Part shown: piece by piece, positions 26,003 to 46,541 of the stretch
How positions within the stretch are numbered: the stretch's first letter is position 1
Layout of the letters: every line of letters starts with the position of its first letter
Assembly: GCF_003018235.1 (NCBI RefSeq)
Contig: NZ_CP027437.1
Length of the DNA stretch: 64,000 nt
Strand: one strand, 5' to 3'
Source of the DNA: Escherichia coli
GTDB lineage: Bacteria; Pseudomonadota; Gammaproteobacteria; Enterobacterales; Enterobacteriaceae
Translations under genes and position numbers: made by a program
Notes under the pieces: generated by a model
Databases searched by the model: none
Told to the model about the DNA's origin: nothing
Seen by the model: only the letters and a program-made list of their open reading frames with translations

Positions 26003-26038
26003 GCCGGATGCGGCGTAAACGCCTCACCCGGCCTGGTA
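26003..26038. repeat. REP-like palindromic element
   Basis: GCCGGATGCGGCGTAAACGCCTCACCCGGCCTGGTAG resembles the REP consensus; lies between the glnS stop and chiP promoter. Confidence 0.5.
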
Positions 26039-42787: not shown

Positions 42788-44326
42788 ATGGCTTTTGCCT
42801 CATTAATTGAACGCCAGCGCATTCGCCTGCTGCTGGCGTTATTATTCGGTGCCTGCGGAACGCTGGCCTTCTCTCCTTACGACGTCTGGCCTGCGGCGAT
42901 TATTTCGCTGATGGGGCTTCAGGCGCTGACCTTTAACCGCCGTCCACTCCAGTCTGCCGCTATTGGCTTTTGCTGGGGATTTGGCCTCTTTGGCAGCGGT
43001 ATTAACTGGGTCTATGTCAGCATCGCGACCTTTGGCGGAATGCCTGGCCCGGTTAACATCTTCCTGGTGGTACTGCTGGCGGCGTATTTGTCGCTGTATA
43101 CCGGATTATTTGCTGGCGTGCTGTCGCGTCTGTGGCCGAAAACCACCTGGCTGCGCGTGGCGATTGCCGCCCCTGCTCTCTGGCAAGTGACCGAGTTTCT
43201 GCGCGGTTGGGTGCTGACTGGTTTCCCGTGGTTACAGTTCGGCTATAGCCAGATTGATGGCCCGTTAAAAGGGCTGGCACCGATAATGGGCGTGGAAGCC
43301 ATTAACTTCCTGCTAATGATGGTTAGCGGCCTGCTGGCACTGGCGTTGGTTAAACGCAACTGGCGTCCGATGGTGGTGGCCGTCGTGCTGTTCGCCCTTC
43401 CCTTCCCGCTGCGTTACATCCAGTGGTTTACCCCGCAACCGGAGAAAACCATTCAGGTTTCGATGGTTCAGGGCGATATTCCGCAATCGCTGAAGTGGGA
43501 CGAAAGCCAGCTTCTTAATACGCTGAAAATTTATTACAACGCGACGGCACCGCTGATGGGCAAATCGTCGCTGATTATCTGGCCGGAGTCGGCGATAACC
43601 GATCTGGAAATTAATCAGCAACCGTTCCTCAAAGCACTGGACGGTGAGTTGCGTGATAAAGGTAGCTCGCTGGTAACCGGGATTGTCGACGCGCGTCTCA
43701 ATAAGCAGAACCGCTACGATACCTACAACACCATCATCACGCTGGGTAAAGGTGCACCGTACAGCTACGAATCAGCCGATCGCTATAACAAAAACCATCT
43801 GGTGCCGTTTGGCGAGTTTGTCCCGCTGGAGTCGATTCTGCGTCCGTTAGCGCCGTTCTTTGATCTGCCGATGTCGTCGTTCAGCCGTGGGCCATATATC
43901 CAGCCACCGCTGTCGGTAAACGGTATTGAGCTTACTGCGGCTATTTGCTACGAGATCATTCTTGGCGAGCAAGTGCGTGATAACTTCCGCCCGGATACCG
44001 ATTATCTGCTGACTATCTCCAACGATGCATGGTTTGGTAAGTCTATTGGTCCATGGCAGCACTTCCAGATGGCGCGAATGCGTGCGCTGGAGCTGGCGCG
44101 CCCGCTGCTACGCAGCACCAACAACGGCATTACGGCGGTGATTGGCCCGCAGGGTGAGATTCAGGCGATGATCCCGCAATTCACCCGCGAGGTGTTAACC
44201 ACTAACGTGACACCGACCACCGGACTCACACCGTACGCACGTACCGGCAACTGGCCGCTGTGGGTACTGACGGCACTGTTTGGTTTTGCTGCTGTGCTGA
44301 TGAGCCTGCGTCAACGACGTAAATAA
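42788..44326 (+). CDS. lnt: Lnt, apolipoprotein N-acyltransferase (512 aa)
   Basis: N-terminal membrane segments then nitrilase-fold domain with the catalytic-Cys region (AAICYEI). Confidence 0.95.
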
Positions 44327-44722
44327 TCCCTTCTTATCGTGCCGGAATACATCCCGTATTTCGGCACGCTCACCGGATGCGGCATCAGTGCGTTATCCGG
44401 ATTACAAAATTCCCCTATCCAACTTTGGCACATCTATTGCTTTGTTATACAAGGCAAAGCTTGAACCAGCATCAGTACAACCCGGTTGCACCACAGCAAT
44501 CCACGGGTAGCACCAAAAGAGTGCATTTTAAGAATTTTGCTTCGGAATGGTGCGGCGCATCTCGCAAAAACAAACAATAAAACAGCAATATCTTTACATT
44601 TAGCCAAACTAAATGTTACCTAACAAGCACAACACTGCACAATAAAGTTGCAGATGATAACAACACAAACACTCACAACGGGTATCCATGCGTTCTTAAC
44701 GCAGAAGATAAAGGAGTTGGAT

Positions 44723-45631
44723 ATGCAATTACGTAAACCTGCCACAGCAATCCTGGCCTTGGCGCTTTCCGCAGGACTGGCACAGGCAGATGACGCCGCC
44801 CCGGCAGCGGGCAGTACGCTGGACAAAATCGCCAAAAACGGTGTGATTGTCGTCGGTCACCGTGAATCTTCAGTACCTTTCTCTTATTACGACAATCAGC
44901 AAAAAGTGGTGGGTTACTCGCAGGATTACTCCAACGCCATTGTTGAAGCAGTGAAAAAGAAACTCAACAAACCGGACTTGCAGGTAAAACTGATTCCGAT
45001 CACCTCACAAAACCGTATTCCACTGCTGCAAAACGGCACTTTCGATTTTGAATGTGGTTCTACCACCAACAACGTCGAACGCCAAAAACAGGCGGCTTTC
45101 TCTGACACTATTTTCGTGGTCGGTACGCGCCTTCTGACCAAAAAGGGCGGCGATATCAAAGATTTTGCCGACCTGAAAGGCAAAGCCGTAGTCGTCACTT
45201 CCGGCACTACCTCTGAAGTTTTGCTCAACAAACTGAATGAAGAGCAAAAAATGAATATGCGAATTATCAGCGCCAAAGATCACGGTGACTCTTTCCGTAC
45301 CCTGGAAAGCGGTCGTGCCGTTGCCTTTATGATGGATGATGCTCTGCTGGCTGGTGAACGTGCGAAAGCGAAGAAACCAGACAACTGGGAAATCGTCGGC
45401 AAGCCGCAGTCTCAGGAAGCCTACGGTTGCATGTTGCGTAAAGACGATCCGCAGTTCAAAAAGCTGATGGATGACACCATCGCGCAGGTGCAGACCTCCG
45501 GTGAAGCGGAAAAATGGTTTGATAAATGGTTCAAAAATCCAATTCCGCCGAAAAACCTGAACATGAATTTCGAACTGTCAGACGAAATGAAAGCACTGTT
45601 CAAAGAACCGAATGACAAGGCACTGAACTAA
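44723..45631 (+). CDS. gltI: GltI, glutamate/aspartate periplasmic binding protein (302 aa)
   Basis: ATG at 44723 after AAGGAG; signal peptide MQLRKPATAILALALSAGLAQA. Confidence 0.95.
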   Translation: MQLRKPATAILALALSAGLAQADDAAPAAGSTLDKIAKNGVIVVGHRESSVPFSYYDNQQKVVGYSQDYSNAIVEAVKKKLNKPDLQVKLIPITSQNRIPLLQNGTFDFECGSTTNNVERQKQAAFSDTIFVVGTRLLTKKGGDIKDFADLKGKAVVVTSGTTSEVLLNKLNEEQKMNMRIISAKDHGDSFRTLESGRAVAFMMDDALLAGERAKAKKPDNWEIVGKPQSQEAYGCMLRKDDPQFKKLMDDTIAQVQTSGEAEKWFDKWFKNPIPPKNLNMNFELSDEMKALFKEPNDKALN

Positions 45632-45788
45632 TTACAAGAACCAGGGGCGGAAATTCCAGCCCTCTCGATTGTTACGTAGCACGGACAGACTATACGCCTG
45701 ATGGTCGTTCCCCATCGGGCCTGAAAACCGCAATACGCTGGGTAACAATCTTCGAGGGTAGCAGTTAACGCTGCTACCCTCTTTTTTC
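45632..45788 (+). ncRNA. sroC: SroC sRNA (processed gltI-gltJ spacer, GcvB sponge)
   Basis: Whole gltI-gltJ intergenic spacer, ending in GAGGGTAGCAG-TTAACG-CTGCTACCCTC hairpin plus TTTTTT (45754-45788). Assigned from recalled K-12 location; 5' end approximate. Confidence 0.55.
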
Positions 45789-45800
45789 TGGAGTAGATTT

Positions 45801-46541
45801 ATGTCTATAGACTGGAACTGGGGTATTTTTTTACAACAAGCCCCGTTCGGCAACACCACCTATCTTGGTTGGATCTGGAGTGGTTTTCAGGTGACGATCG
45901 CTTTGTCGATCTGCGCCTGGATTATCGCTTTCCTCGTCGGTTCATTTTTCGGCATTTTACGTACCGTTCCAAACCGTTTTCTCTCCGGTCTGGGTACGTT
46001 GTATGTCGAACTGTTCCGCAACGTGCCGTTGATTGTGCAATTCTTTACCTGGTATCTGGTGATCCCGGAGTTGCTGCCAGAGAAAATCGGCATGTGGTTT
46101 AAGGCCGAGCTGGATCCCAATATTCAGTTTTTCCTTTCATCCATGCTCTGCCTTGGGCTGTTTACCGCCGCCCGTGTTTGCGAACAGGTACGCGCCGCGA
46201 TTCAGTCGCTGCCGCGTGGGCAGAAGAATGCCGCGCTGGCGATGGGTCTGACACTACCGCAGGCTTACCGCTACGTACTGCTGCCTAATGCTTATCGCGT
46301 TATCGTCCCGCCGATGACCTCAGAGATGATGAACCTGGTGAAAAACTCCGCCATCGCCTCGACTATCGGTCTGGTGGATATGGCGGCGCAGGCGGGTAAA
46401 TTGCTCGATTACTCGGCCCACGCCTGGGAGTCGTTTACCGCCATTACGCTGGCGTATGTATTGATTAACGCTTTTATCATGCTGGTGATGACGCTGGTTG
46501 AACGTAAAGTTCGCCTGCCCGGCAACATGGGGGGCAAATAA
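45801..46541 (+). CDS. gltJ: GltJ, glutamate/aspartate ABC permease (246 aa)
   Basis: Polar amino-acid ABC permease; operon context. Confidence 0.95.

Follow-up and report, generated by a model that had tools for sequence, protein, structure and literature searches.

An uninterrupted lnt-gltI control region in a non-K-12 strain of Escherichia coli

By comparing the lnt-gltI intergenic spacer of a 64-kb stretch of E. coli DNA (64,000 nucleotides, referred to here as the window) with K-12, with other complete E. coli genomes and with related Enterobacterales, we conclude that positions 44327-44722 are very probably the control region, uninterrupted and of the ancestral type, of the gltI-sroC-gltJKL operon for a glutamate/aspartate ABC transporter in a non-K-12 strain. 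The IS5 element found at this locus in K-12 is missing from the window spacer, which is the ordinary default state of the site. An uninterrupted gltI region is itself ordinary and has already been described in the literature.

Boundaries of the spacer and absence of IS5

The spacer is bounded on the left by the lnt gene for apolipoprotein N-acyltransferase (42788-44326, plus strand), a 512-aa ORF annotated as lnt in strain 1190 (NZ_CP023386), and on the right by the gltI gene for the periplasmic glutamate/aspartate-binding protein (44723-45631, plus strand), which is assigned by its translation and by the annotation of the same strain. The 596 bp around the spacer are 100% identical to strain 1190. 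With lnt ending at 44326 and the gltI ATG at 44723, the spacer comprises 396 bp. An initial sequence-only reading of this DNA had described a 396-bp spacer lacking any transposase-sized ORF, and its coordinates were exact: the largest ORF touching the spacer in the ORF list is 67 aa long, and no ~1.2-kb element with a ~326-aa DDE transposase is found there.

The same reading had named IS5 terminal repeats in the spacer as the observation that would speak against its claim, and had proposed a search for insertion sequences. For the 16-nt IS5 terminal repeat GGAAGGTGCGAA(C/T)AAG the best match on either strand in 44301-44760 is 10/16, and neither IS5 nor ISKpn26 gave a blastn match anywhere in the 64-kb window. 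No 4-bp target-site duplication of the YTAR type was detected, the tetranucleotide CTAA occurring singly at 44620-44623, and a search of the spacer for a duplicated CTAA with a residual IS fragment was also negative.

The part of the spacer next to lnt carries two palindromic elements. A hairpin with a 13-bp stem (44338-44368, plus strand), recognized as an inverted repeat and by folding, is located just past the lnt stop codon and is conserved in E. albertii; it has no T-run and is therefore not a canonical intrinsic terminator. The second element is the REP-like palindrome that had been placed at about 44371-44406, which is real and is located at 44373-44400 (plus strand), 47 nt past the lnt stop codon. 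It consists of CCGGATGCGGC-N6-GCGTTATCCGG (in full, CCGGATGCGGCATCAGTGCGTTATCCGG), folds into a stem-loop and agrees with the REP consensus, an imperfect GC-rich palindrome of ~30-35 nt of the form …CGGATGCGGCG…CGCCTTATCCGG…, with 0 such pattern matches expected by chance. Another REP-type copy, CCGGATGCGGCGTAAACGCCTCACCCGG, is present at 26004-26031 of the window with 3 mismatches (again 0 expected by chance). Folded together, the hairpin and the REP element reach -34.2 kcal/mol (z = -5.5 versus shuffled sequences), and the match of this region (44341-44402) to the REP-derived Rfam family naRNA4 is weak and sub-threshold. The Rfam scan of 43500-46500 detected no RNA family in the spacer, its only results being sroC and the sub-threshold matches to sbrA and naRNA4, and a terminator scan of 44200-44850 found none in the spacer, the sole terminator-like site being inside lnt. 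Most other short direct and inverted repeats (D1-D7, I2-I10) are unconserved unless they overlap the boxes described below, and were treated as chance occurrences.

IS5-family insertions at the CTAA site

The IS5 copy that the sequence-only reading had attributed to MG1655 (insH3) exists. In a K-12 genome (O16:H48), the gap from lnt to gltI contains a gene annotated as IS5 transposase, and the MG1655 gene order is lnt-insH3-gltI (IS5 b0656, 'IS5 at gltI/lnt'). The element is 1195 bp long, with its transposase gene in the gltI direction, inverted repeats GGAAGGTGCGAACAAG and CTTATTCGCACCTTCC at its ends, and a duplicated CTAA; its junctions join TTACCTAA to GGAAGGTGCGAACAAG on the left and CTTATTCGCACCTTCC to CTAACAGG on the right, which corresponds to the CTAA at 44620-44623 of the window, where the element is lacking. 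MG1655 has the same short spacer allele as the window and an identical sigma-54 promoter 17-mer. In silico removal of IS5 and one CTAA from K-12 leaves 399 bp that align with the window without gaps and with 16 substitutions, the two being collinear. The IS-stripped K-12 spacer differs from IS-free natural isolates by 1 SNP, and K-12 therefore represents a common natural allele with IS5 added to it. The window spacer, being 16 positions away from the K-12 allele, is therefore not a K-12 derivative.

In the clinical strain BH100 this CTAA is occupied by another IS5-family element, ISKpn26 (91% identical to IS5), which is oriented like the K-12 IS5. Perfect terminal repeats and a flanking CTAA pair are found at the homologous site in both K-12 and BH100. 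The spacer contains five YTAR sites and both elements are inserted in the CTAA at 44620-44623; the target shared by two independent events hints at a site preference. The stronger proposal of an IS5 hotspot was rejected, since beyond the K-12 lineage there is one independent event (BH100) in 5,426 genomes. The BH100 site corresponds to 1300-2510 of the extracted locus (L003), and the downstream gltK gene of this strain is annotated as a pseudogene.

At other operons of E. coli, namely bglGFB, flhDC, glpFK and fucAO, IS5 insertions activate silent or weak operons. The gltI insertion resembles these insertions at fixed CTAA/CTAG sites in that a preferred YTAR target in a promoter region is used and the adjacent operon is affected. 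It differs from them in that a reduced nitrogen induction has been reported (PMC9731577), and in that only two independent events are found in 5,426 genomes. The effect of IS5 at gltI in K-12, for which Zinser et al. 2003 is the primary paper, is cited here from secondary sources.

In our census of 5,426 complete E. coli genomes, a partial or full match to the spacer region was obtained in 5,423, and the spacer was found in three states that sum to the same 5,423 genomes: i) a long allele of 2,229 bp whose gene encodes 625 aa, BH100 being the sole carrier of an IS (3,238 genomes); ii) the short uninterrupted allele, as in the window, matching the whole spacer (1,833 genomes); and iii) the short allele with a K-12-type IS5 at CTAA (352 genomes). 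Of the 5,408 genomes matched by a 161-bp probe with CTAA at its centre, 5,055 have the probe sequence without interruption. An IS5-family left junction is present in 353 genomes (352 with K-12-type IS5 and 1, BH100, with ISKpn26), and all 60 of the 60 K-12-type carriers among the matches listed are K-12 laboratory strains (for example MG1655, C600, DH5alpha, DH1, HMS174 and RV308). The IS-free site is the norm in this census, and the lack of IS5 therefore says only that a strain is not K-12; its earlier description as a minor strain marker was correct, if generous.

Two side observations concern the IS5 copies of K-12-type genomes. Right junctions of the K-12 type were found in 350 genomes and of the ISKpn26 type in 1, as compared with the 353 left junctions, and two K-12-type genomes thus seem to be rearranged on the right side of IS5. 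The sequence NZ_CP110860.1 ('plasmid peccDNA113', 113,260 bp), deposited as a plasmid, is a circle of K-12-type chromosome, with the nmpC porin gene and gltI linked by one IS5 copy. It is as long as the stretch that separates the nmpC and gltI copies of IS5 in K-12, and it looks like the product of excision through recombination of the two direct-repeat IS5 copies.

Precise excision of an insertion sequence leaves no footprint, and the window spacer could in principle be a revertant that had formerly carried IS5 at this site. No positive evidence points to such a history, and we regard it as exceedingly improbable: CTAA is single, there is no IS remnant in the spacer and no IS5 or ISKpn26 DNA in the 64-kb window, the listed carriers of the K-12-type element are confined to K-12 laboratory strains, and no clade in which all other members have IS5 at the site was seen in the census.

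Short and long spacer alleles and their ancestry

The short and the long alleles differ in an allele-specific segment at 44311-44477, which in the window comprises the last 16 nt of lnt, the two hairpins and the sigma-54 promoter of gltI, and which is swapped for a 2,229-bp segment in 3,238 of the 5,426 genomes. In BL21, for example, homology to the window ends at 44310 and returns at 44478, with the long segment in between (NZ_CP053601.1, 648056-650529; 2057-4530 of the extracted locus L005). The gene in the long segment is on the opposite strand, divergent from gltI, and encodes a 625-aa protein in which an N-terminal rhomboid domain (Pfam PF01694) is combined with a beta-propeller at the C terminus. 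A separate sigma-54 promoter, TGGCATGTAAGTTGCT, belongs to the long allele and is located at the same distance of 60 bp to the first NtrC-type box as in the short allele, whereas the sequence between these two elements is strongly diverged between the alleles. The presence of the short allele, without the rhomboid-gene segment, is a more informative marker in this spacer than the IS5 status.

The polarity of this replacement was assessed in an outgroup scan with one genome per species, in which a degenerate DNA pattern for the GltI peptide GHRESSVPFSYYDN yielded 120 loci. In the loci that include both genes, lnt is usually directly upstream of gltI, with spacers of ~300-650 bp; the gap is at least 1.2 kb in a small number of genera, among them Yersinia and Hafnia. 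Over the stretch between the sigma-54 promoter and the ATG, sequence collinear with the window is found in E. albertii, a second E. coli, Salmonella diarizonae and four Citrobacter species, and the layout of the window is therefore of the ancestral type. The word 'intact', which the sequence-only reading had applied to the spacer with regard to IS5, also holds in this comparison with E. albertii, Salmonella and Citrobacter.

The opposite polarity would make the short spacer a secondary derivative of the long allele, formed by deletion or replacement of the rhomboid-gene segment, and 'intact' only as far as IS5 is concerned. The long allele is the majority state in E. coli, its internal diversity (80-100% identity) suggests age, and rhomboid-gene homologues with only 50-53% identity are found in this slot, equally oriented, in two contigs, one of the Klebsiella aerogenes type (L130) and one other (L131). 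Against this stand the short collinear spacers of E. albertii, Salmonella and the four Citrobacter species, whose promoter segments are nearly identical to that of the window and unlike that of BL21, as well as the finding of a rhomboid homologue adjoining gltI in 0 of the 120 sampled species loci. Moreover, nothing homologous to 44311-44477 was detected within the 2,229-bp long segment, and a simple deletion therefore cannot yield the short allele. We therefore consider a derived origin of the short spacer improbable. On grounds of parsimony, a short ancestral layout in Escherichia is preferred over an ancient presence of the rhomboid gene with repeated loss. Since the rhomboid gene fills the same slot in two other enterobacterial lineages, 'ancestral' is here a parsimony call and not proven; the term 'intact' suits the spacer under either polarity.

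Control elements of gltI and their predicted function

The gltI promoter region that had been noted in the spacer contains a sigma-54 (RpoN) promoter, TGGCACATCTATTGCT, at 44426-44441 (plus strand), which matches the consensus TGGCAC-N5-TTGCW at 11/11 positions (GG at 44427-28, GC at 44439-40). The transcript is predicted to start near 44452, which would give a leader of ~271 nt. The window-identical 17-mer is the sigma-54 ChIP-seq site OS04 in MG1655, where it was assigned to insH3 because IS5 intervenes (PMC4591121). In Salmonella, the corresponding site TGGCACGTCTATTGCTTT upstream of gltI is bound by sigma-54, and gltI is listed as NtrC-dependent (PMC3844500). For E. coli, gSELEX peaks of both RpoN holoenzyme and NtrC were reported in the insH/lnt spacer (PMC8743547), and an NtrC ChIP-seq peak was assigned to gltIJKL, with an 80-bp bin that cannot place the sites upstream versus downstream of the promoter (PMC4066584).

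Candidate binding sites were scored out of 12 against the NtrC consensus TGCACC-N5-GGTGCA, and their offsets were counted downstream from the first base of TGGCAC. In the window, three NtrC-type boxes follow the promoter: box 1, TGCACCACAGCAATCCA (44487-44503; 9/12), with a perfect left half-site that is conserved in the Escherichia/Salmonella/Citrobacter alignment; box 2, AGCACCAAAAGAGTGCA (44509-44525; 10/12), the best conserved, with an offset of +82 to +96 in most species; and box 3, TGCTTCGGAATGGTGCG (44538-44554; 9/12), with a conserved right half-site, a GGTGCGG block that is invariant in the same alignment, and an offset of +111 to +125 in many genera. A fourth NtrC-like palindrome, TGCACAATAAAGTTGCA (44636-44652; 10/12), is located ~70 bp upstream of the gltI ATG; a counterpart with an offset of +209 to +211 is present in Escherichia, Salmonella, Citrobacter, Enterobacter and others. 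A decay of box 2 in K-12 following the IS5 insertion (C-to-T at 44514) was considered and dismissed, as the IS-free natural isolates have the same SNP.

The arrangement is conserved across Enterobacterales. In 86 species of this order for which the flanks were long enough, a sigma-54 promoter is located ~280-460 bp (mostly 285-345 bp) upstream of the estimated gltI ATG. NtrC matches are located at about +61, +83, +112 and +210 in the Escherichia-Enterobacter group and at about +72, +95 and +124 in the Serratia, Pantoea and Pectobacterium groups. In 66 of the 86 species, the window included, the interval from +55 to +145 contains a match scoring 10/12 or better; the corresponding count is 0 of 86 both for the mirror interval upstream of the promoter and for shuffled sequence. 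One NtrC-like sequence on the upstream side, TTCACCCGCGAGGTGTT (44180-44196, inside lnt, at -246; 9/12), recurs at variable distance in conserved coding sequence and was rejected as a probable by-product of protein conservation.

Canonical promoters of this class such as glnAp2 and glnHp2 have their NtrC sites ~100-140 bp upstream. The gltI region shares with them the -24/-12 promoter, tandem TGCACC-N5-GGTGCA sites and control by nitrogen limitation, whereas its only conserved sites are downstream, with centres near +43, +65 and +94 relative to the predicted start. We found no description of a downstream NtrC-site layout at gltI in the searchable literature (EcoCyc and RegulonDB being outside the scope of that search), and novelty is not claimed.

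Sites downstream of a sigma-54 promoter are unusual, and any DNA palindrome can also fold as an RNA hairpin. The leader palindromes (44487-44554 and 44636-44652) could accordingly be RNA hairpins, binding sites of a regulator other than NtrC, or NtrC sites with their main effect on a downstream sigma-70 promoter, about 100 bp upstream of which they are located; the ChIP peak (PMC4066584) is too coarse to decide. We consider these alternatives unlikely. Across the 86 species the half-sites keep the NtrC letters TGCACC and GGTGCA and show no free covariation, a pattern that speaks for DNA sites bound by protein rather than for RNA hairpins, and the offset from the -24 element is fixed at +83 or ~+95. 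A conserved NtrC-like site upstream of the promoter is found in 0 of the 86 species, yet NtrC binding to the locus has been detected both in vivo and in vitro (PMC4066584, PMC8743547), and the locus is nitrogen-induced in IS-free strains (PMC9731577). On this conservation pattern, the NtrC enhancer of the gltI sigma-54 promoter appears to be situated within the ~271-nt leader, and NtrC may activate the promoter from these downstream sites.

A second, sigma-70 promoter is a low-confidence candidate at 44593-44622 (plus strand), consisting of TTTACA, an 18-nt spacing and TG-n-TACCTA, and overlapping the CTAA target of the IS elements. The TTTACA and ACTAAATGTTA blocks are invariant in the Escherichia/Salmonella/Citrobacter alignment, and a consensus scan of 44200-44850 for sigma-70 promoters found no site. 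The gltI operon has been reported to have both sigma-70 and sigma-54 promoters, with no positions given (PMC9731577).

Farther downstream, the 5' UTR of gltI contains the CA-rich element ATAACAACACAAACACTCACAAC (44657-44679, plus strand), a conserved putative target of the GcvB small RNA and translational enhancer. In Salmonella, the CA-rich GcvB target and enhancer is located ~45 nt upstream of the gltI AUG (PMC3879156), and the element in the window agrees with it in position, ~45 nt upstream of the AUG. Between this element and the Shine-Dalgarno sequence AAGGAG (44711-44716, plus strand), which is invariant in the alignments, a small stem-loop GCGTT-CTT-AACGC is found at 44690-44702 (plus strand). 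Its sequence differs among genera with the pairing potential kept; RNAalifold supports 3 pairs only, 2 of them with compensatory changes, and the covariation for a conserved RNA hairpin at this position is weak. The downstream read-out of the promoter region is the sroC small RNA from the gltI 3' UTR (45627-45789, plus strand; Rfam RF00369, 174.8 bits, E = 3e-38).

Much of this organization is shared with gltI of Salmonella enterica (STM0665), which is collinear with the window from the promoter to the ATG, has the promoter sequence TGGCACGTCTATTGCT at -290 and NtrC-type boxes at +83 and +112, and likewise has the CA-rich element, the Shine-Dalgarno sequence, sigma-54/NtrC dependence, a GcvB-regulated 5' UTR and SroC. 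The differences are found in the stretch from lnt to the promoter, which carries another REP-like segment within a 356-bp spacer, and in the CA-rich region, which is 7 nt shorter.

Based on these elements, the following regulatory scheme can be proposed. Under nitrogen limitation, phosphorylated NtrC would bind to the leader sites, the DNA would loop back, and sigma-54 RNA polymerase would be activated from downstream, leading to the induction of gltI, gltJKL and the SroC small RNA. The K-12 IS5 at CTAA puts 1.2 kb between the control elements and gltI and would also split the -10 element of the candidate sigma-70 promoter. A passage of PMC9731577 links IS5 in K-12 to the loss of most of the nitrogen-limitation induction of the operon, and nitrogen-limited cells of IS5-free E. 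coli and of Salmonella show induction of SroC (PMC9731577). As a tentative extension of this scheme, gltI may represent a natural, order-wide case of an NtrC enhancer located downstream of its promoter, within the ~271-nt leader. In addition, CTAA, which overlaps the -10 element of the candidate sigma-70 promoter, may be favoured as a target by IS5-family elements, and a single insertion could then uncouple both promoters from gltI.

For specialists, the interest of the locus may lie in the three-way set of spacer alleles (short, short with IS5, and long with the rhomboid gene) and in the conserved downstream placement of the NtrC sites. The window has no insertion or trace of one, and normal NtrC/sigma-54 regulation is therefore to be expected: the strain is not a K-12 derivative, and its transporter operon (gltI, gltJKL) and SroC should keep their normal control by nitrogen limitation. 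K-12 is the exception at this locus, and regulatory findings made in K-12 for gltIJKL and SroC do not carry over to the ~93% of sequenced E. coli without the IS.
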